A stretch of DNA of 61,363 nt, the filler included, from Kipferlia bialata (taxonomy: Eukaryota): the NCBI GenBank assembly GCA_003568945.1. It is 4 parts of 4 records of this genome, joined end to end, with 100 filler letters (N's around TTAATTAATTAA, not from the genome) between each part and the next. Parts side by side here need not be neighbours in the genome. Positions count along the whole stretch, not along the records: positions 57,057 to 61,363 come from BDIP01000367.1; 3 more parts are not named here. The stretch is one strand, 5' to 3'. The notes below the pieces were generated by a model that worked only from the letters and a program-made list of their open reading frames with translations, made no database searches and was not told the origin of the DNA. The position numbers and the translations under genes are program-made. Below, one piece after another: positions 17,953 to 61,363 of this stretch. Each line of letters starts with the position of its first letter. The stretch's first letter is position 1.

Positions 17953-20900
17953 GCCCCCCCCCCCCCCCCCATCCACGCCCTATGTCTCCCTCTGTCCACC
18001 TTCTCCTTAAGACAAGGATCATTGGTTTCTTTGCCACGTCTCTCAGGTCTTACTCTCAGGTGTGCATTTCTCTTGATGCTTCGGGGTCGATGGGCGGGTC
18101 AGACGGCTCTTCTGGAGGGACAACGAAGATGGAGGTGTGTGGTTGTACTAAATTGTACTGGCTGACGCATTGCATTCTGCCAGTGACACTGACTCTTCAG
18201 ACGGCCATTGTCACCAGCCTGGAGTTCCTTGACGAACTCAACGACGTGACCCCCGTCAAGGACAAGGCATCTGCCAACTACTGGGATGAATTTCTCATTA
18301 TGCGTGAGCCCACCACCCCAGGCCTTGTGGATGACTACACCGACATTAGGGTGTGTGTCATTCTCTTCTGTCATGATGTGTTGTATATATATATGTATAT
18401 ATATACATATGGATACGTGTTGCTGTATTGGAGGGAGTATTTCTACACCCTTCCTCTTTCTCACTCACCTCAGGCCATGATTGAAGACATCGTTGACGAC
18501 GGGTACACCAACCTCACTGTCGGTCTTGGGGCATGCCTCGCCGACTTCCAGGCAGTGGGTACCGATCCCAACCTGTTCAGCAAGGCAGTCATCTTCCTCA
18601 GTGACGGGAGGGAGACCAGGGGTCTTCCCTATTTCAACACAGGTGTGAGGTCTTTGGGAAACTGTCCTTTCCATTCTGAATCATTCTCTATATCTTACGC
18701 AGGCCACGACATTGCTGTTGCCCTCGGCGCTCTAGGGGTCAAGATCTTCTCCATTGGTCTTGGCAATAATGTTGGCGAAGGTATGTCAGTATATATATTC
18801 TACCCTTGATGCATTTCGATACCATAAAGAGTCAGATGTGATCAGAGACTTATAGTCCTTTTGTGTTCTAATCTAATCTTCAGCCGAGATGGACGACATG
18901 GCTAAATCTGGAGCTCCTGGGGGTATGTTCTTCGAGGGAGTGGACCAGGCCACCCTCCCAGCCATCTTTGCTGCCATCCTGGAGTCCATCACCATCGCGC
19001 TTGCCCCTTCTGACGTTGATATCACCGAGATCACCGAGCCTTACATCATCGACGAGCCCCCCTTCTCCCCTAACGCCCCTGACAACACCAGTGGTAGCAA
19101 CACCTTCGAGTGGGAAGACGTCAGCAACAAGCTCAACCCCCCTGACGACTACCTCACCGAGGACGAGTCCTACGTCATCACATTCGTCGCTAAGGTAACG
19201 ATGAGGTTTTCGTTTCCTATACTTTCCCGGTACTCATGTTATGACTGTATCCCACACCCAGGCGGATCAATGTGGCACTGACCTTCCCGTGGACGCCGCC
19301 GGTGCCGAGGTCAACTATATCGATGAGGATAACATCCCCCGGGTCGTGACCATTCCCCCTGGGTCCATCACCGTGCTGTGTGAGGACACCTGCGAGGAGT
19401 GTGTCCACATCGGCAAGGTCTGGTGCGTTAAGGCCGGCGACCACGACGACGAGTGTGTGTTCGAGAATGAGGTGGACGGCACCTGCATCGCCACATCCGA
19501 GACCAACCCCAACTGCGACTTCACCAACACCTGCCAGGCCTGCGCTGCCTTGGATGGTTACGTCTGGTGCCTGGATGTGAACGGCGACGGCGACTGCGTC
19601 GACAGGGACCTGTCTGATGGTTGCGCCTACGTGGTAGACACCCAGCACGAGTGTGACCTGGAGCCTCTTACTGATTGTGGTGACTGTATTGAGCTTGACG
19701 GCTCCTGGTGTTACCGCCTGTCCCCTGCGGAGGGTGAGTGTGTACCCGACGGTGACAGCCCGCCGGCCGACTGCAACGATGTCATCGAGGTCGATACCGA
19801 GTGTGATCCCGATGTCCCCATCAACTGTCAGGATTGTCTTGACCTGTTTAACACGGTGTGGTGTGTGTTGCCTGGTGACACTGATGATATCTGCCTTGAT
19901 TCCTCCGATACATGCTCAGGAATTGCCATCACTGACTGTGGCGCCCCCAACATGTGTGTAGAGTGTGTCGCCAGAGACGAGTACGAGTGGTGTGTTGTGG
20001 ATGACACTGGCTCCTGCGTGCTCGAGGGCACCGAGGCCTGCGACTATGTCATTGAGGACGCTGCTCTGTGTGGCGAGGACCCTGACACCTGCNNNNNNNN
20101 NNNNNNNNNNNNNNNNNNNNNNNNNNNNNNNNNNNNNNNNNNNNNNNNNNNNNNNNNNNNNNNNNNNNNNNNNNNNNNNNNNNNNNNNNNNNNNNNNNNN
20201 NNNNNNNNNNNNNNNNNNNNNNNNNNNNNNNNNNNNNNNNNNNNNNNNNNNNNNNNNNNNNNNNNNNNNNNNNNNNNNNNNNNNNNNNNNNNNNNNNNNN
20301 NNNNNNNNNNNNNNNNNNNNNNNNNNNNNNNNNNNNNNNNNNNNNNNNNNNNNNNNNNNNNNNNNNNNNNNNNNNNNNNNNNNNNNNNNNNNNNNNNNNN
20401 NNNNNNNNNNNNNNNNNNNNNNNNNNNNNNNNNNNNNNNNNNNNNNNNNNNNNNNNNNNNNNNNNNNNNNNNNNNNNNNNNNNNNNNNNNNNNNNNNNNN
20501 NNNNNNNNNNNNNNNNNNNNNNNNNNNNNNNNNNNNNNNNNNNNNNNNNNNNNNNNNNNNNNNNNNNNNNNNNNNNNNNNNNNNNNNNNNNNNNNNNNNN
20601 NNNNNNACAGTATGGTGTGTCCTGCCAGATGAGAACGATGATCTCTGCCTCGCTTCCGCCGCCGACTGCATAATCAACTACTCTGGCGTCCCCATAGAGG
20701 ACTGTGGCGCCCCCGACATGTGTGAGGCATGTATTGCTAGAGACGAGTACGAGTGGTGTTTTGTGGGTGACACTGGCTCCTGCGTGCTCGAGAACAGCGT
20801 GAACTGCGACTATGTCATTGAGGACGCTGCTCTGTGTGACGAGGACCCCGACACCTGCGAGGGCTGCCTTGCCCTCGGTAACACCTGGTGTGTGAGGGCT

Positions 20901-22233: not shown

Positions 22234-22333
22234 NNNNNNNNNNNNNNNNNNNNNNNNNNNNNNNNNNNNNNNNNNNNTTAATTAATTAANNNNNNNNNNN
22301 NNNNNNNNNNNNNNNNNNNNNNNNNNNNNNNNN
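22234..22333. other. Artificial contig spacer
   Basis: N run, TTAATTAATTAA at 22278-22289 (stops in all six frames), N run. Confidence 0.97.
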
Positions 22334-42238: not shown

Positions 42239-43796
42239 ATGAGTGCCAGTCAGCAGCAGGCGGCATTCTCGCTGAAGGCCCCCCCTGCTGGGGAGGTACC
42301 TGAAGGAGAGGAAGGGGCAGATGCCGAGCAGGCCAAGATGGACAAGCTGAGGAAGAGGCTGGAGATGACAGGGGAGCCCGAGGAGGGAGGTCCCAAGCGG
42401 AGGGGACCCAAGCAGGTGTGGGGTTGGATGCAGTGGGGTGTTACTAGTGCCAATACCTATAGTGCTCATACTCTATAATGTTAACCATCCCATACATATA
42501 CACCCACCCCCAGGTGGCAGAGGAGGAGAGGATGGTGCTCAAGGCCAGAGACTTCGAGATTGACTTTGACCAGCACATCGGTATGTATGTATATATATAT
42601 AGTTGTCGGTATTTGTTTCACTTTGTTACACAGTCATCTCTTGTGTACCATGTGTACACCACGTTCCATCATCATTGCATATATAGAGATGTATTTGTAC
42701 TTCGATTTCGCTGTGAATGTGTACGTCTCTCTCTCTCTCTCTCTCTCTCTCCCCCCCCCCAAAAAAAAAAACCCGAAGCATATTGTATATATTATCAGCA
42801 TCTCTCCTTCTGTGTGCATATCTATCCCAAACACCCCCATTCACCCCAGGCCGTGCCGAGGCCCTGTCCCTGGCATCCAGTCAGCAGCACAGCGGAGGAT
42901 TCAGGTGGGTGTCTATGTGTATGTGCCTTTGTGAGTATACATACACACATTGTCATCTCAGTGTTTGTATACTACTACGTATTCAGTGTGTTAGCCCTTC
43001 TGTCCATCCCTCCCATATCTCCCCCGTTGTCGGGTGTGACTGTCATATATACATATCACATCTCTCTATACACCCCTCTCACCCCCAGGTGCAAGGTGTG
43101 CAGGCTGACCTTCAAGGACAGTGCATCATACCTGGACCACATCAACTCGGACGAGCGTACGTGGATAAGTCCAAGTATATATATATATACCCAAGACTCT
43201 ACCCGTAGATGCCTCTCTTATCGTTCTCTTATTGCCTCTATGGATACATACATGTGTATAGTCCTCACCCCAGACCAGGGTGCTCTTGGTTTCCAGACCA
43301 CGGTGGAGAGAGTGTCTGCGGAGAAGGTATGTATTTGTGTGTGTATCTATATACAATGTATGACACATATGCTGTTTATTGTGTGTGCAGTGCTGATATA
43401 TGCTGACCTCAGGTCATATCCCGTATGTAGAGATCACTTACATGACATATGTATTCTATTACACATATCAATTATACAGTATCCAACCCCCCAGGTCATA
43501 GCCCGTGTCTATGATATACCCTATCATTACATACGTATACTAGTATTCATTGTCTTTGTATGCTGACCCCTTAGGTCATTGCCCGTATCAAGTACCACGC
43601 CAACCGGAAGAGGAAGGGCAAGACACTCGAGAGGAAGCTGAAGCAGATCAGGTGGGTGGATAGTGTATATATATGTATATCTATACATATAGATGTATAT
43701 ATATGTATGCTCAAGCAGATCAGGTGGGTGGATGTATGGATATATATACAGGTATATATATACATATATACAGATAGGTGTGTATATATATATACT

Positions 43797-43832
<36 letters not shown>

Positions 43833-44561
43833 ATATGTCCATATATACAGGTAGATGTATATATATGTATGCTCAAGCAGATCAGGTGGGTGTATATATA
43901 TATATATATACTGGAATATATATGTATATATATATATTTTATTATTCTCGATATATGTGTATGTATGCTCAAGCAGATCAGGTGGGTGAAGGCTTGTATG
44001 TGTGTATCCACTCCCCTAATAAGTGTATATATATGTATGTATATATGTTTCAGCATACTACCACAGTTCTCTTTTGCACAGCCCCTCACCCCCAGGGCCG
44101 ACGAGGAGGCCACCGTTATGAAGGCCACCTACTCGCACGAGAGAGAGAGAGAGAAGAGGCGGGACATGATCAAGTACCACGAGGCCAAGCTGAGGAAGAG
44201 AGAGGAGGACGAGGCGGCGGCCCTGGCCATCGCCAGCAGACCCGCCCCCGTTCCCCCCCAGAGGCCCCAGACCTTGCCCCCGATGGTCCAGCCGATGATG
44301 CCTGGCCTGGTGGATGAGACTGTGCCCATGGTGCAGCCGATGATGCCGCAGGACGTGTATGCCCCTCAGCCCCTGATGCCCATGGCCCAGCCCACCCCAG
44401 AGGACATAGAGAGGGAGATGGTCGGGATGGCACAGCCACACGTGCAGGCACAGCCCCTGATGCCTACTGGGCCGGGGGTGCCCATGGGTGGGGTGCCAGT
44501 GCAGCCGTACCCTGTGGGGGAGGGGTACCCCCAGGGACCACAGCCACCCCAGAGGATGTAG
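42239..44561 (+). CDS. ZMAT2: Zinc finger matrin-type 2 / Snu23 spliceosomal protein with Pro/Gln/Met-rich tail
   Basis: Spliced [15 protein letters not shown]...[25 protein letters not shown]...[18 protein letters not shown] matches the ZMAT2/Snu23 signature. Confidence 0.85.
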
Positions 44562-44562
44562 A

Positions 44563-44662
44563 NNNNNNNNNNNNNNNNNNNNNNNNNNNNNNNNNNNNNN
44601 NNNNNNTTAATTAATTAANNNNNNNNNNNNNNNNNNNNNNNNNNNNNNNNNNNNNNNNNNNN
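44563..44662. other. Artificial contig spacer
   Basis: TTAATTAATTAA at 44607-44618 within an N run. Confidence 0.97.
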
Positions 44663-48200: not shown

Positions 48201-49052
48201 ATCCCAGAATGGGGACCCACCTGCCTAGACCCCCTGCTGACTCCCAGTATGCCCTCAATGTCATGGTGGGATTGCCACAGCACCTACTGCTACAGGTATG
48301 GGGACTGTCTACACTATATAGAGTACATCAAGGAACCCATCTCTATTTGCATTGTCGCCCTTATTTCGTTGTTTCTGTTTGGTATAGTCAGTCAGTATTC
48401 TGTTGTTGTCTCACCGTCAGAAGGCCGATTGGATCATCGCAGACCCCACCGACTACTACTCATGCCCATGGGAACAGCACTTGCACACATGGGACACGGT
48501 GTCTGAGGTATATACATATATATATATACATATGGTTAATAGTATCGGAGATTTGTAATATATGTGTGCTAATACCCTATTAATCCGTAATATCTCCATA
48601 GCACTTGTACACATGGGACACGGTGTCTGAGGCATTATTCTGCAATATAGTATCCCACACCTCTCTCCCTCTCACTAATGCCTTAGGCTTGGGCCGAGAT
48701 ACCCTTTTTGAAGGAGGACTATATGTGTCTCTGAGTGTGTATATGACTACATCTCTTCCTAATTAAGATGAATCACTGAGTGAACCGTGCTCCTCTTTGT
48801 ATAATGTACATAGACATTTATTGATTGCCAAACGGATTTCCTGATTGATTATAGGAATGGACCGAGATCCCCTTTGTCGGAGCGGACGGTGTCACCAAGG
48901 CCGAGTGTCCCCGTATGTCCATGGCTGTACCTCTGCAGCCCAACGGAGGTGCCGACTGTAAGTGGATAGTGTACAGGAATAACAGCTATGATCAGGGGAA
49001 TACCCAGAGTTCACCAGCTCTGTCTGTTATGGAGTTCTGGGAGAAGGAATAG
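44922..49052 (+). CDS. Kelch/beta-propeller-like protein encoded by many short exons
   Basis: ATG 44922 (MSDSETSE/DTSEDDSW...). Exons with MYTLCLDSLECH, VGVVGDTAYFI, YSFDEGWS, HLHTWDTVSE. Last exon 48857-49052 EWTEIPFVG...MEFWEKE*. Confidence 0.65.
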
Positions 49053-50739: not shown

Positions 50740-50927
50740 GGAGTCGGATATATGACCAAGGGTGTACGTGCCTGTCCCTAACAGTACCCCTGCAGCATAA
50801 GGGAGGTGCTGAGGCAGCTGACTGTAAGTGCATAGTGTACAGGAATAGCAGCTGTGGGCAGCAATGCACTCAAGGCTCGCCAGCGCTATCTTTCATGGAG
50901 TTCTGGTATTCAGAAGCCACAGAATAG
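50740..50927 (+). pseudogene. Paralogous fragment of the last exon of the 44922-49052 gene
   Basis: Protein-level similarity to exon 48857-49052; no upstream exons seen. Confidence 0.5.
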
Positions 50928-52903: not shown

Positions 52904-54340
52904 ATGGAGGTAGCAGTGGCTGCTCTGAATGCAGACATTGGTGGAGGGCCCAGTGAAGTGGAGGTGAGTGGTGTGTACGAAGAGGACTCAATATAGGTCT
53001 GATACGTCATGTATTGTTCGTCACCCCCAGTCACCGTGTTGTCTCTGTTACGACCCCGACTCTGACCCTCTGACTATGGGGTGTGGCCATGTGTTCTGTC
53101 TGGGGTGTATGACAGCATTGCTGGAGGGGAGGTACGGGGTCTGACTCAGATAGTATACATACACACAAAGTCATAACACAAATCTCCACATTGGATTTGA
53201 TAGGTCCTGCCATGTGTCATATACACAGGTGACCAGAGTCATCCTTCACAATTGTTGAATCAACATAGGCTCTCACATTGTATTATACAATGATTGTATA
53301 TCTATCTTATATACACAGGTGGTATGGCCGGTCGGGTGCCAGGATCAGCTTTGGCTTCATGGGGTGTCCCATGTGCCAGAGTGATATATCAGGTCACCCT
53401 GTCTTGGATACACTGATGGCACCCCTTGTCACACTCAGAGAGAAGGTGCACAGGATGGCAACAATGAGACAGGTGTGTATACGTATATCCTGTATATATT
53501 GAGTAATGCATATGTTAACGAGATAGACCTGAGTACATCATATTACTCAATATTTTGAGACAAAGAAGAGAATATGTCTCCTTGTCACACTATTACACGG
53601 TGTAAATAGTGTATACATTAGTGCAACATACACTCTATAGGCAATACGTCACTGTACGGTTACCCTAACCCGTCAGCAGATGGAGCATGGCAGTGGGTCA
53701 GTGTCCGATGCCATCAGGGAGTATGCATACTACCAGTGCCACAGGTCGGTTGCAGTAGAGTAGGGTAGTGTTATTGTAGTATCTCTTTGAGCATCCTCCC
53801 GGAGGACCCCCGCGATCCACAAGCATTATATGTAGTAACTGTAGGTGTGCTGAGCCCTACTATGGAGGTGCAGTGGAGTGTGCCGCAGGGAGTGAGACAG
53901 AGTACAACCAGGATGACCTCACATGCCCTAGGTATACATACTGAATCTAGTAGATCAATAGTGTCTATATTCTCAGTGTATTACTACCTACTGGCCGCAG
54001 AGTCATCACCTAACACAGGTGCACCCGTCTTCAGTCCCCCACCTCCCTCCCTGACACCTGTTCCTCCCACGGCACAGACTACATCCAGTGGAAGTGCAGG
54101 TACTGCTGCAGTATGGCAGTGTTCTTCTGTTTCGGCACCACCCACTTCTGCGTCGAGTGCCACAACAACTACAGCAAGTGTCAGGCAGCAGAGAAAGCGG
54201 GTACCCTACCCCCATGCCCTGCTGGCCCTGTACTAAATGGCCTAGCTGGAGAGTGTCCATTGGGATGTGCCCACCCCCCCACAGGCAGTGAGTTCTGCAT
54301 GGGGTGTGCAGAATGCAGACTGAAGGAGGAGGACTACTGA
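52904..54340 (+). CDS. Small MYCBP2/Highwire/RPM-1-type RING-Cys-relay E3 ligase domain protein
   Basis: Spliced CCLCY...GCGHVFCLGC...ARISFGFMGCPMC (RING), then YAYYQCHRCAEPYYGGAVEC...HGTDYIQWKCRYCCSMAVFFCFGTTHFCVECH...HPPTGSEFCMGC, closely matching the PHR-family C-terminus. Confidence 0.9.
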
Positions 54341-54573
54341 GTATAGCACTATTTTTCATACACAATAAATGATAGTCCATAATGGACACGAATACGTTCA
54401 ACACTTGGAGAATGACACATATACGGAACGGGATGTACCGAGTGCAGACTCAGGGAGGAGGACTACTGAATAGTAATAGAAACATGATACACTAACCACT
54501 GGATAAGTGACCTATACGGATCATTCTATTACATATCTACATTTCATTTCATCAACACACACTCCTAAGGGGC

Positions 54574-55994: not shown

Positions 55995-56956
55995 ATGATC
56001 CACACTCACCGCAGCCAGGGCCTCTGCCAGAGGCTTAGGGAATGGTGTCAGGGCATGGCCAGCAGCCAGTGCCTCAGTGAGTGAGAGGACTGCCTGTGCC
56101 CCCTCCTCAACAAGTGAGGCATGGAGGGGGGTGTCGATGCTGCCACACAGGATGCCATCCACCCTGGGGTGAGAATGAGAATGACCACATACAATATTAA
56201 GGAATACTAAGGTAAAATATAGCAGGGTAGGTATAGCCATACCTGTCGTAGACCTCCAGCAACACTCCCCCTGCCACACTACAATACTATACTTACGCTG
56301 AAGACAGCAAACATGTACTAGGGAATGTGTGTGCAGCCATACCTGTCGTAGACCTCCAGTAGCACTCCCCCTGCCACACACACAATGGAGGGACAGAGGG
56401 GGGCAGAGTCTACGGACACAGATGCCCTATCTGCTGTCTGGGCCAGTGAGACCAGCTCGGTAACCCACCCAGCGGCATGGAGGGGGGCAAAGTGGCCTGG
56501 TATATAAGAGAGAGTGACGACACACATATGTATACAACACATTGCCACAAAATAGAGATCTACATAAATATACACGTATGTATATATATCATATAAACTA
56601 CTCTACATACACACACATACCGGGGGCAGGTGCCTCTGGGAATGTGCTGAATGGCAGTGTGAGTCTAGACACTGATAGGGCAGAGGAGAGAGAGAGGTGC
56701 ACGGGGATGCGGCTGGCAGGGATAGACATGACACGGGAGATGAACTCGCCTGGGGGTTAGGGATGCTGTCAGAGTGGCCTACTGACCACCGCTGTCTCTC
56801 CCTCACTTTCTCTATGTATATATTCCACAGCTGTATAGACATACTTCTCCATTACCTGAGTCTGCTGCAAGTGCTGTGAGGGTGGCCACCACGGCTGTCC
56901 TGAGTCTGGCATCCACATGGGGGGCAGACAGGACAAGCCTATGTATTAGACATGAG
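54574..56956 (-). CDS. Hypothetical multi-exon, Leu/Ala-rich helical protein; 5' end cut by contig edge
   Basis: GC-rich exons flanked by ctcacccccag acceptors and gt donors; last exon within ORF 54574-55230. Confidence 0.5.
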
Positions 56957-57056
56957 NNNNNNNNNNNNNNNNNNNNNNNNNNNNNNNNNNNNNNNNNNNN
57001 TTAATTAATTAANNNNNNNNNNNNNNNNNNNNNNNNNNNNNNNNNNNNNNNNNNNN
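56957..57056. other. Artificial contig spacer
   Basis: TTAATTAATTAA at 57001-57012 within an N run. Confidence 0.97.
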
Positions 57057-57108
<52 letters not shown>

Positions 57109-57123
57109 CCCTCTGACCCCCAG

Positions 57124-60100
57124 GATAGTCAGGGACAGGGCAGTGGCACTCTATGTAGACATGCACGGACACTCTAGGTATTGTACAGATCAGTGTATGT
57201 ATTATGTTCAATACCAATGAAGTGGAGTGTTATCGCCACAGCAGACGTGTTCCTCTCTCCCTTACTCCAGGCGCAAGAACGTCTTCATGTATGGGTGTGA
57301 CAACAAGAGAGACCCGGCACTGCTGCACTACGAGAGGGTTCTTCCCAGGTACATTTAGTAAGTATATGTAGTATATATAGAGGATTGAATATTCACATGT
57401 TGATATCTCATCTCGCTGTCTCTCTGTCTCTCTCTCATTCTCTTTCTCTCTGCACCCTTACCCTAAGGATCCTCGATGACTTTGGCCCCTCCTTCAACTA
57501 CGAGGATTGCACGTTCAAGGTATATACGACTAGTCATCAATAATATATGTATATATGTATGTATGTATGTATATTAACTACCTAGTATATATGCTATACT
57601 CTATAGATACATCCTTCAACTACGAGGACTGTACATTCAAGATATGGGTATGTGTGTATATACTAAGTGTATACTATACTCTATATTCTTTCCTGCATAC
57701 TAGTTCTAAGACATATATCTAATACATATATCTAATACATATTAATGCAGCGTAACAAGGAGGGCACTGCCAGGCTGGTTGTCAACACTATATATTATTC
57801 CTCATATATGTCACATATATATAGTATTCTATATTAGATGCTAGTGTAATACGTATGCTCATACCAGATGCAGCGTAGCAAGGAAGGCACCGCCAGACTG
57901 GTTGTGAGTATAGGATATACACTCTTCATATATTCTTATGTATATGATATACTATCCATACTAACCCTCTAGATGCAGAGGTCTAAGGAGGGCACCGCCA
58001 GACTGGTTGTTAGTGTGTATATATATATATACATATCCAACATGAGTTGGATCCAATATACTCTGTACTGTATACTATGTATCATCTTCTTATACCAGAT
58101 GCAGCGTAGCAAGGAGGGCACCGCCAGACTGGTTGTGAGTATATACATATACATACTCTCCTCTCCCTATTTATTAATGTATGTATATAAATATATACCC
58201 ATACCAGATGCAGCACTCTAAGGAAGGCACCGCCAGACTGGTTGTCAGTATATGAGTATATACCATACTATCCAATACCATATGTATTATGTATATATAT
58301 ACTAACTGTAGATGCAGCGTAGCAAGGAGGGTACAGCCAGACTGGTTGTGAGGAAGGAGTACAACGTGGTCAACTCCTTCACCATGGAGGCATCGTTCTG
58401 TGGGACAAATCAGGGTATGTATACCCTCAATGTATTCTATTTGTGCTGCGTATGTGTGTGTACTCCGTGTTGTGACTCTCAGGCAAGTACTGTGACATTC
58501 AGTTCAACGAGGCTGATACATGCATATCCCGATACAACGCATATAGAGACATACTTACTGTATATTATGAGCATAAGTGATTATATACTAACCCCCCAGG
58601 CAAGTACTGTGACGTCCAGTTCAACGAGGCTGTTATTTGTATATATACCTATATCAAATAGTATATACATATATATATATATATAAGAATACTTATACAT
58701 CTATGTACTTATCATCAGGCAAGTACTGTGACATCCAGTTCAACGAGGCTGATGTACATATACATTTAAATAGTTTTACTGTTATAGTAATATGTGTGAA
58801 TACATACTCTAACTCCTAGGCAAGTACTGTGACATCCAGTTCAACGAGGCTGCCCTGATGGAGATGGGGGCGGCATTAGGTATATATAGTGTATAACTAT
58901 AGTATAAATATATAGAATAGTATACAATAGTATGTGGATCATTATTTCTTAGATCTATTTGTATATATATTAGAGGCTGCCCTGATGGAGATGGGGGCGG
59001 CACTAGGTACAATATGTATTGTACAAAGAATAGTATATATAGGGAGAGAGAGATAGAGAGAGAGTGGCCCTGATGGAGATGTGGACGGCACTAGGTATAG
59101 GGATACAATCTTTCACATATTGTCAGAATATTCAATTCTCTCTCTCTCTCCCCCCCTGTACACCCTAATATACTAGGCAAGGCCATTCTGCACTCCTTTC
59201 CTACTCCGTCCTTCTCTCTCTCTCTCTCCCTCTCTACACCCTTTAATCAATCAGGCAAGGCCATCCTGCACTCCTTTGCCACTGACACCACCCCCGGTGA
59301 TGCTGCCACTGATCTATCACACCCTGGTGTGCCCCCTCTAAGTGAGGCTGGTCGAGAGGTATGTACTAGTGTATTGTATATATTAATATTATATAATGTA
59401 TGTAGCATATATATACACTGACCTCTCCCACCCTGGGGTACCACCCCTGTCTGAGGCTGGTAGAGAGGTATACATACTATGTATATAGTATAAGTATACT
59501 ATAGTATAGTATATATATAAGAATAGTATATATGTATATATATATACACTGACCTGTCGCACCCTGGGGTGCCTCCATTGAGTGAGGCTGGGAGAGAGGT
59601 ATGCATATATACTAGTGTATATATATATTTTTACATTTATAAGGTGCCACCATTGAGGGAGGCTGGTAGAGCGGTATTGACTCTCTTTCTCTCTATCTCT
59701 CTCTCTCTCTCTACACTCTTTACCCCAGGTTCTCAACACCATCCGGACTGAGCTCCAGCGGACAGCAATGAGGAAGGAGGAGGAGGTGTGTATAGATTTA
59801 TATATGTGTGTATTCTAAAGTGGGTATTGTTTATACTGTGTATATACTATTATGTATGTACTACTATACATATGGAATATATAACTCCAGCGGACAGCTA
59901 TGAGGAAGGAGGAGGAGGTGGGGTGTATAGATTCATTAATATATGTTTGCTTCCTATAGTGTCTACCATACTCTTACTCTCTAGGTTGAGCCCATCGATG
60001 ACTCCGACTCAGAGTCTAGTATGTATATATATATCCTATATATATGCCAGGTTCCTATCTATATATCTATATATACATATATATACATATATATACATAT

Positions 60101-61363
60101 ATATATACATATATATACCTGTATATACCACTCATACTAGGTAGAGCCCATCGATGACTCCGACTCTGAGTCTGATGAAGAGCCAACAATCAGAGACCAG
60201 ATCAAGGTATATATACCCCAGAACGCTAAACGATAAACTTTCTATACTAAACGGCAGAGACCAGATCAAGGTAATAGGTATATATGCCCCTATATATACC
60301 ATGAAACGCTAAACGCTAAACGCTAAACGGCAGGGCAAGAAGGGCAATACCCCCCCACCTGATGCTGACACCCCTGCTGATGATGTCAACCCATACGAGG
60401 TGCTGGACAGTCTATCTTCCCTGCAGGTATGTACAAGGATGTATATATATATATATTCGTACTTTACAGTATATAAGTATATATATATACCCCTGCTGAT
60501 GATGTCAACCCCTATGAGGTGCTGGACAGCCTGTCCTCCTTGCAGGTATGTACATACACATATATATGTGTATATATGTATGCATTTGCTGGACTGTAGA
60601 ATCTACTGTAGTTGTATTGTTAGTGGCTACTTACTCCCTAGGTGGCCCTCAAGAGAGATTATATGTATAATAGTGAGTACTATAATGTATACTCTATATA
60701 TATGTAGTATAATAGTGCCTATTCTAACCCTAGGCCGCTCTCAAGAGAGACACGTCCAAGGACAAGTAATATTTTATGATATATACACACGTGTGATATA
60801 TTTAATGCTATTTCTGACTCTCTAGGCCGCCCTCAAGAGAGACACGTCCAAGGACAAGAAGATTGTATTCACAATAGTGTCTATTATATTATATACTGTG
60901 TATGTAGTATATTAGTGCCTATTCTGACACTCTAGGCCGCCCTCAAGAGAGACACCTCCAAGGACAAGAAGAAGAAGAAGAAGGCAAAGAAGGAGAAGGT
61001 ATCTATTGTACAATGTATTATACGTTTATAGTCACTTGTGTCACTGTATATTACATACGCATATTCTCTCTCTCTCTCTCTCTAGCCCCTTATTGTCAGG
61101 CTGCCAAGAAGAAGAAGAAGGTCAAGAAGAAGGAGGAAAAGGAGAAGGAGAAGGAAATGGAGGTATGGGATATATAAGTAATATGTATATATGTATATAT
61201 ATGTGTGTAGAGAGAGAGAGAGGGAGAGAGAGATAGAAGAAGGTGAAGAAGAAGGAGGAGAAGGAGAAAGAGAAAGAGAAGGAAATGGAGGTATGGGACA
61301 TATATGTTAGTATATATCTATAGAGAGAGGGGGGGGGGGGGGGGGAAGAGGAAGAAAAAGAAA
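57124..61363 (+). CDS. Cytosolic carboxypeptidase (M14D, CCP/AGBL/Nna1 family, tubulin deglutamylase type), partial; Lys/Glu-rich tail
   Basis: Spliced LYVDMHGHSRRKNVFMYGC...ERVLPRIL...FNYEDCTFKMQRSKEGTARLVV...NSFTMEASFCG...FNEAALMEMG shows the Zn-ligand HGH and catalytic FTxE motifs of CCPs. Confidence 0.92.
57610..61300 (+). repeat. Intronic tandem copies of exon edges in most introns of the CCP gene
   Basis: ATGCAG...GTTGT x6 (57745-58350); GCAAGTACTGTGAC..CAGTTCAACGAGGCTG x4 (58483-58852); GCCCTGATGGAGATG x3; GAGGCTGG.AGAG x4; GCCCTCAAGAGAGA x4 (60640-60965). Confidence 0.95.

Follow-up and report, generated by a model that had tools for sequence, protein, structure and literature searches.

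Introns of a carboxypeptidase-like gene of Kipferlia bialata carry half-exon copies that differ from their exons mostly by silent changes

How does an intron come to hold five partial copies of the exon that follows it, four of them with an acceptor, and why do these copies differ from that exon mostly by silent codon changes? This question is raised by a 792-nt intron (57520..58311, + strand) of KIPB_002289, a gene of Kipferlia bialata, in the last part of the window, that is, the whole stretch of 61,363 nucleotides that was analysed. The window is composed of several pieces with N44-TTAATTAATTAA-N44 spacers between them (22234-22333, 44563-44662 and 56957-57056); these are likely contig joins, and the pieces flanking them are possibly unlinked. 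A gap of 514 N lies at 20093-20606. The last piece (57057-61363) holds the 3' part of KIPB_002289, whose visible portion (57125..61177, +) is a cytosolic carboxypeptidase-like (CCP) gene of 11 exons with its 5' end cut at the N linker. The spliced product of this gene matched the annotated protein at 268/268 aa, and over 123 aa it shared 44% identity (E 8e-35) with a Rhizophlyctis protein annotated as cytosolic carboxypeptidase 2, which carries both PF00246 (Peptidase_M14) and the N-terminal PF18027, including DxHGH and FTMEASF. Note that the 5'-truncated KIPB_002289 protein alone matched neither PF00246 nor PF18027 at E<=0.1, so that the M14 label is by homology only. By this homology, exon 4 probably falls within the CCP-type M14 region, as an earlier reading made from the DNA alone (hereafter the sequence-only reading) had proposed. 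Pfam searches with two single exons and a PDB sequence search with exon 4 gave no matches, the queries being too short.

The limits of the 792-nt intron are given by the RNA contig of run X2 and by the protein mapping. Upstream of it lies exon 3 (57468..57519, +; donor G|GTATAT), which is supported by a 52-nt RNA-contig gap, bin depths and an exact protein fit, and downstream lies the used exon 4 (MQRSKEGTARLVV...FTMEASFCGTNQ; 58312..58414, +; 103 nt), which is supported by the RNA contig with 0 differences and by the annotated protein. Six exon-fragment copies lie between them. One is a 30-nt copy of the 3' end of exon 3 (57612..57641, +), with three silent and no replacement changes, whose donor GT has decayed to AT. 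The other five are copies of the 5' part of exon 4, and they start where the sequence-only reading had put them, ahead of the true exon at 58312: copy 1, the outermost (57745..57782, +; three silent changes and S>N; acceptor lost); copy 2 (57868..57908, +; three silent, no replacement); copy 3 (57973..58013, +; five silent, including CGT>AGG and AGC>TCT, no replacement; CTAAC branch motif); copy 4 (58099..58139, +; two silent, no replacement); and copy 5, the innermost (58208..58248, +; five silent and R>H). As that reading had also stated, four copies have acceptors, copies 1-5 being preceded by TTA (none), CAG, TAG, CAG and CAG, respectively, and the codon variation is mostly silent, with 18 silent and two replacement codons over the five copies. 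Its 36-nt unit, on the other hand, was too short: exon homology reaches 41 nt in four of the five copies, which represent the first 38-41 nt of exon 4. Specifically, copies 2-5 match through GTN AG, i.e., Val13 and the first two bases of Arg14, and each array unit consists of a 64-86-nt intron-like spacer followed by the copied exon start. The silent codon variation is the main anomaly of the locus; it had been recorded earlier, yet its weight was missed.

A single DNA contig from run X1 spans 57586-58655 with 0 other letters, 0 gaps and a depth of 456 (neighbours, 429-460). Because this contig crosses the array unchanged at neighbour-like depth, the array is no quirk of assembly and exists in genomic DNA, as had been supposed. 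Note that run X1 may be the source sample and is not a second individual. A tandem concatenation of alleles by the assembler would suit short-read data and the silent-only differences, which resemble alleles; such an artefact is nevertheless scarcely credible, since the X1 contig is k-mer-based and shows no difference from the assembly, and since a single diploid has too few alleles to account for six different versions.

The sole reason for treating run X2 as RNA was that its contig shows splicing at GT-AG sites, so that its nature as RNA is a guess. Its 1645-nt contig covers exons 1-9 of KIPB_002289 without differences and joins 57519 directly to 58312, with an RNA depth of 0 over 57633-58208. 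Crossing eight introns, it skips all 19 copies in them, and no other RNA contig was found on any of these 19 copies by the listed pieces and bin depths; in the exon-4 array, copies 1-4 had a depth of 0, and copy 5 had no depth other than that of the main contig. The annotated protein likewise omits every exon-4 copy. These RNA data are one contig set, and contigs drop rare isoforms, so that they describe the main product only; for that product, the claim of the sequence-only reading that the spliceosome skips four acceptors holds. At 90% likeness no variant letters were found in the X1 or X2 contigs, which represent one sample.

Why are the copies skipped? We compared their splice signals with those of 23 introns in the two fully modelled genes, KIPB_002289 and KIPB_002259 (44922-49050); three further genes were seen in part. 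The exon structure of KIPB_002259 is taken from its annotated protein, and RNA support concerns the CCP gene only. Used donors have G at -1 in 23/23 introns, with a consensus of mostly G|GTAT (8 RNA-supported, 15 from annotation), and a branch motif YTNAY lies at most 16 nt from the AG in 21/23. A second donor type, G|GTGGGT, also occurs among the 23 introns. The sequence-only reading had regarded gtgagt, gttagt and gtcagt at the copy ends as good donors. However, these are the exon's own Val codon, with its wobble base varying, followed by AG, and the G at -1 is missing: the base there is T if the copy is cut at 36 nt, or A if it is cut at 40 nt, a cut that shifts the frame. No candidate donor scores above 1.5 bits, the median of used donors being 11, and the true exon 4 carries the same GTT|GTGAG as the copies. 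Copy acceptors, by contrast, were comparable to used ones by position matrix (p=0.34; medians of 5.5 and 6.8 bits, respectively), and a branch motif accompanies most of them. The mirror-image 3'-half copies described below have donors somewhat weaker than used ones (p=0.02). Thus, 5' copies keep acceptors and have no G|GT donor, and 3' copies are mostly without a good acceptor upstream; two CCP 3' copies with a strong acceptor would form exons of 13 and 27 nt, the shortest used internal exon being 47 nt.

These signals bear on the three roles that the sequence-only reading had proposed for the copies, namely decoys, mini-exons or recursive-splicing steps, of which decoys remain and the other two fall. 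Alternatively included 36-nt mini-exons with both splice sites, preserving the frame as 12-codon units, would profit from acceptors of normal strength in four of five copies, an in-frame GT after codon 12 and a real coding constraint. We judge them very unlikely: no donor of the organism's type follows any copy, the -1 G of all used donors is missing, and the RNA depths given above show no inclusion in the main product. Inclusion would also add repeats rather than replace the exon half, because exon 4 has no in-frame internal acceptor, and 3'-half copies without acceptors show the same constraint, which mini-exons leave unexplained. Joining of a copy to an internal acceptor of exon 4 was considered and rejected, no AG being present in the needed frame at the break. 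As for recursive splicing, the even spacing of the acceptors (104-126 nt) would suit stepwise removal of the 792-nt intron. However, in the part of PMC8605326 that defines them, recursive sites have the acceptor directly before a donor, whereas none of the four copy acceptors is AG|GT; all four read AG|ATGCAG. The ATG directly after the acceptors means that no donor is regenerated, so that recursive removal is excluded for the array; a copy once used could not be removed, and recursive use would not conserve amino acids. As a role for these copies we therefore give recursive splicing almost no credence. Reading on from any copy acceptor of the array leads to a stop within 16-83 codons, and decay of mis-spliced RNA could hide some use of the acceptors as decoys. 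The skipping appears to fit exon definition together with selection against duplications that form a usable exon.

The array is not peculiar to exon 4. A frame-blind census of every exon against every intron in KIPB_002289 and KIPB_002259 found 35 copies, 22 in the CCP gene and 13 in KIPB_002259, and all 35 lie in the intron adjoining their own exon and in the same orientation. Those upstream of their exon represent its 5' half, of which 18/21 start at the exon 5' end and 18/21 keep the AG, and those downstream represent its 3' half, of which 14/14 end at the exon 3' end and 12/14 keep the GT. A splice-anchored repeat search of the window gave 42 pairs, against 0 in each of 20 local shuffles. 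At least one copy is present in 14/23 introns, and copy-free introns are 77-162 nt long; intron length follows 111 + 107 nt per copy (n=23, rho 0.94), a relation that is partly by construction. In the CCP gene, the exon-4 intron is followed by three copies of the exon 5 5' part, each with an AG acceptor (starting at 58483, 58600 and 58719; 58483..58751, +), two copies of the exon 5 3' part with donors (58973 and 59067) and one of the exon 6 5' part (59177; together 58973..59205, +), three copies of the exon 6 3' part (59416..59671, +), and seven more beside exons 7-10 (59885, 59985, 60255, 60489, 60645, 60734 and 60826; 59885..60862, +). In the inner two exon 6 3' copies, 10 and 9 of the 17 codons are changed silently and none by replacement, the swaps including Ser AGT>TCT and Arg CGA>AGA; the exon 6 3' end falls outside the alignable catalytic region. 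Hence the sequence-only observation is largely real, and the feature is wider and stranger than first described: the same pattern, including the mirror-image 3'-half copies with a donor and no acceptor, is present at most introns of the gene and had been overlooked. The first piece (1-22233) has intron-like motifs and only one splice-anchored repeat pair, so that copy density differs strongly between loci; it seems to be tied to TA-rich introns. The copy counts concern two fully modelled genes in this window only.

The 22 CCP copies differ from their exons by 60 silent and 7 replacement codons (dN/dS 0.049, pS 0.37), and mismatches by codon position, in 19 of these copies, were 16/233, 5/231 and 53/229. 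For the five exon-4 copies dN/dS was 0.081, and for KIPB_002259 it was 0.21 over 12 of the 13 copies, or 0.29 with an over-extended 13th. If a copy was born in place, with one working exon per pair, no constraint acts during half or more of the time that separates the two, and therefore at most 41% of changes should be silent. As for distinct codon variants, 42/49 were silent in the CCP gene (p=2e-10 against this bound) and 9/11 in the exon-4 array alone (p=0.008); in KIPB_002259 they were 10/22, which is compatible with duplication in place. In simulations with the same detection filter, 0/1200 each reached the observed silent share when the copy was silent for 100%, 50% or 25% of the time, and the observed 60/7 was matched at about 5%, showing that protein-level constraint acted on the copy lineages during ~90-95% of the period that followed their split from the exon lineage. 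A simple internal tandem duplication, with the copy then decaying neutrally where it arose, accounts for adjacent head-to-tail units and for decay of the outer copies, and KIPB_002259 alone would allow it, but the CCP counts and simulations make it highly improbable; the silent sites of the exon would, moreover, need a rate of change about 19 times that of the same sequence placed in introns. A faster silent evolution of the exon was rejected on this 19-fold difference. Selection to diverge from the copy was also rejected, as it would act at all copy sites.

The copies also record an order of events. In the seven arrays with at least two copies, damaging changes (replacement or splice-site loss) numbered 11 per 59 codons in the outermost copies and 4 per 154 in the inner ones (p=2e-4), and in the CCP gene only, 5/44 and 2/140 (p=0.009). 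Silent changes were not higher outside (10/59 outermost, 38/154 inner). Expressed as a correlation of rank with damage, the trend reached only p=0.06, and some changes of KIPB_002259 lie at alignment ends. In the set of six exon-4 sequences, the Ser (AGC/TCT) and Glu (GAG/GAA) codon sites show all four gametes, as in recombining alleles, a pattern that inter-copy conversion or repeated mutation could also give. Taken together, the damage gradient, the flat silent differences and the four gametes indicate that silent divergence came first and silencing and decay later.

Divergence before silencing could have taken place in long-diverged full-length paralogues or homeologues rather than in population alleles, the units being overlaps left by imprecise crossovers that fused them. 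Such fusions would likewise escape the bound set for duplication in place and account for the high silent divergence. We hold this to be unlikely: about 22 fusions would be needed in 4 kb, serial fusion should leave the earliest copies saturated with replacements, whereas copy 1 has one, and the protein collection has no paralogue. In fact, no second K. bialata protein with exon 4 was found among four candidates (cluster size 1).

The reading that we prefer, and hold to be moderately probable, is that unequal DNA repair at short homology took up most of an intron, together with the half exon next to it, from diverged haplotypes, and that the resulting unspliced duplicates are skipped for want of a partner splice site. 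Two copies on one chromosome cannot both work, and each would therefore have served as a working exon in a haplotype of its own while they diverged, until both came to lie, recently, in one chromosome. Short conserved exons lie between fast-changing AT-rich introns, so that a repair template may align in the exon and fail to align in the intron. A break in the exon would be repaired off the diverged homologue, with synthesis running past the splice site into the unalignable intron, and the ends would be rejoined at microhomology, leaving a tandem unit of intron plus half exon. Going by the damage gradient, new units would arrive beside the exon and push older ones outward to decay. The spliceosome would likely ignore them because no partner splice site lies across an exon-sized span, and only duplications that cannot be defined as exons would survive selection, which would imply exon definition in a short-intron protist. 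At the breakpoints only 1-8 nt of arguable microhomology is present. The spacers of one array show only a weak relationship to each other: in 5' arrays their mean score is 5.7, compared with 1.5 between arrays (p=5e-4), and in 3' arrays p=0.11. Donor-like motifs at 5'-copy ends were not significantly enriched (7/20 vs 21% background, p=0.10), and we therefore do not claim that the units are entire introns with an exact cut at the donor, or that an RNA lariat was the template.

Capture from diverged haplotypes predicts frequent outcrossing among very diverse K. bialata lineages. Silent-site diversity is about 0.15-0.2 in the most diverse species, and the pS of 0.37 needed here exceeds this, so that exchange among cryptic species may be required. 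Dmc1 tolerates mismatches. According to the repair-gene passages of PMC8516963, metamonads are without Ku/NHEJ, and fornicates are without Rad51A and have two Dmc1 paralogues; the k-mer passage of PMC5874029 judges the published K. bialata genome diploid from k-mer peaks. A donor haplotype was not found in the X1 or X2 contigs at 90% likeness. A metagenome search with the KIPB_002289 protein (at least 587 stretches) gave four relatives and no Kipferlia-like locus among the matches listed; these four were all 49% identical, uninterrupted over the match and of 39-44% GC.

Alternatively, the copies might be selected in place as silent cassettes or back-ups, which recombination (conversion or single-strand annealing) swaps into the working exon. 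The dN/dS of 0.05, the copy-versus-copy differences (42 silent to 14 replacement) and the strict adjacency and orientation of each copy to its own exon fit such a system, and repair in metamonads and fornicates must, as far as the passages of PMC8516963 on it go, use homology-based routes. Nevertheless, we consider it rather unlikely. Swapping often enough for selection would homogenise the sequences, yet up to 10/17 codons differ; by estimate, a product of population size and mutation rate of ~0.1 or more is needed, the same regime as for capture; silent variants yield no protein diversity; and the outer copies decay. No chimeric or contracted form of the array was found among the DNA or RNA contigs, which is a weak test. 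The genome-wide version, in which introns are banks of synonymous exon halves serving as silent cassettes for housekeeping genes in a eukaryote without end-joining, we rate equally doubtful.

How do the copies compare with known systems? Internal (intragenic) tandem duplication was reportedly treated by Gao and Lynch in 2009. Spliced-out duplications of this kind and the Rogers model of intron gain, in the portion of PMC3265369 that presents them, likewise involve a short head-to-tail intragenic repeat that leaves the protein unchanged. In the Rogers model, however, a duplicated exonic AGGT makes a new intron, whereas here the unit spans an existing splice site and lengthens an existing intron: the used donor and acceptor come from the pre-existing intron, and the duplicated stretch is without AGGT. 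Compared with tandem-duplication relics, direct adjacency is found in 35/35 copies, but half-exon copies recur at 14/23 introns and differ almost only silently, and neutral decay (dN/dS of ~0.5 or more) is not seen in the CCP gene (0.049). Pseudoexons and decoy sites are also intronic exon-like sequences with plausible splice signals that are skipped, and ordinary pseudoexons are without coding constraint; the present copies, on the other hand, can each be recognised as half of the adjacent exon, carry one real site and bear a coding signature. Dscam-type tandem mutually exclusive exons are adjacent arrays of similar whole exons with both sites and low dN/dS, and they are present in mRNA. The copies resemble them in forming adjacent similar arrays, but as half exons they cannot replace exon 4 and keep the protein, and they were not seen in RNA contigs. 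Silent conversion cassettes (pilS, vls, VSG pseudogenes) encode different amino acids and serve antigenic variation. They are alike in being partial untranslated coding-sense copies near an expressed gene; here, however, the same peptide is encoded, the host is the introns of a housekeeping-type gene, and no conversion was found in the contigs of one sample. Recursive ratchet points and RS-exons, as outlined in part of PMC8605326, share the intronic upstream acceptors, whereas here AG|GT is absent and the intron is below 1 kb. In sum, the copies resemble spliced-out internal tandem duplication, yet they do not show neutral decay and do not share what defines recursive sites and mutually exclusive exons.

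The intron and repeat passages of the 2018 K. bialata genome paper, which counts 124,912 introns, are silent on such copies, and the string 'duplicat' is absent from its main text. A search of main texts, largely of papers outside subscription journals, found no description of half-exon intron copies, and the list of known intron gain mechanisms in PMC13685798 does not include this one. If the capture reading is true, one genome would be a readable archive of past alleles kept in introns, and would point indirectly to outcrossing and very high diversity in a free-living member of the fornicates, a group whose sexuality is unsettled. It would also represent a new route by which introns lengthen, by ~107 nt each time, in the only fornicate of the 2018 paper that is rich in introns. 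The copies furthermore form a test set for splice-site choice, since acceptors of real strength before the same exon start are skipped, contrary to 'nearest site' models for short introns. The spliceosome passages of PMC6679479 describe a reduced spliceosome, with 87/174 searched proteins and no snRNA candidates found.

Several further observations were made in the window. KIPB_002259 (44922-49050, +; 356 aa, hypothetical) has its 13 half-exon copies in 8/13 introns. In a zinc-finger-like gene (43413-43981, +), the exon at 43575-43651 has two 5' copies and three 3' copies; the latter share a silent CTG>CTC in the predicted frame and similar spacers, and the 5' copies read AG|GTCAT, an accidental recursive site there. 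A minus-strand gene (56243-56379) has a 3'-half copy with a donor and a silent CTA/TTG change in the predicted frame, and a further diverged pair (54301/54430, within 54301-54472) lies near a stop codon. In exon 5, a single GAGGCTG (58846-58852) marks both the end of the three 5' copies and the start of the inner 3' copy, as if one break site had fed both arrays; no such shared site was found in exons 6 and 8. A coding-like stretch (...VPLQ...GGA...DCK) is present in two similar but diverged copies at 48856-48960 and 50760-50900, ~1.9 kb apart, which lie outside the half-exon pattern. Finally, the branch-point region of intron 8 consists of an AAACGCT x3.7 repeat (60304-60329), which is found again in the upstream duplicated unit.
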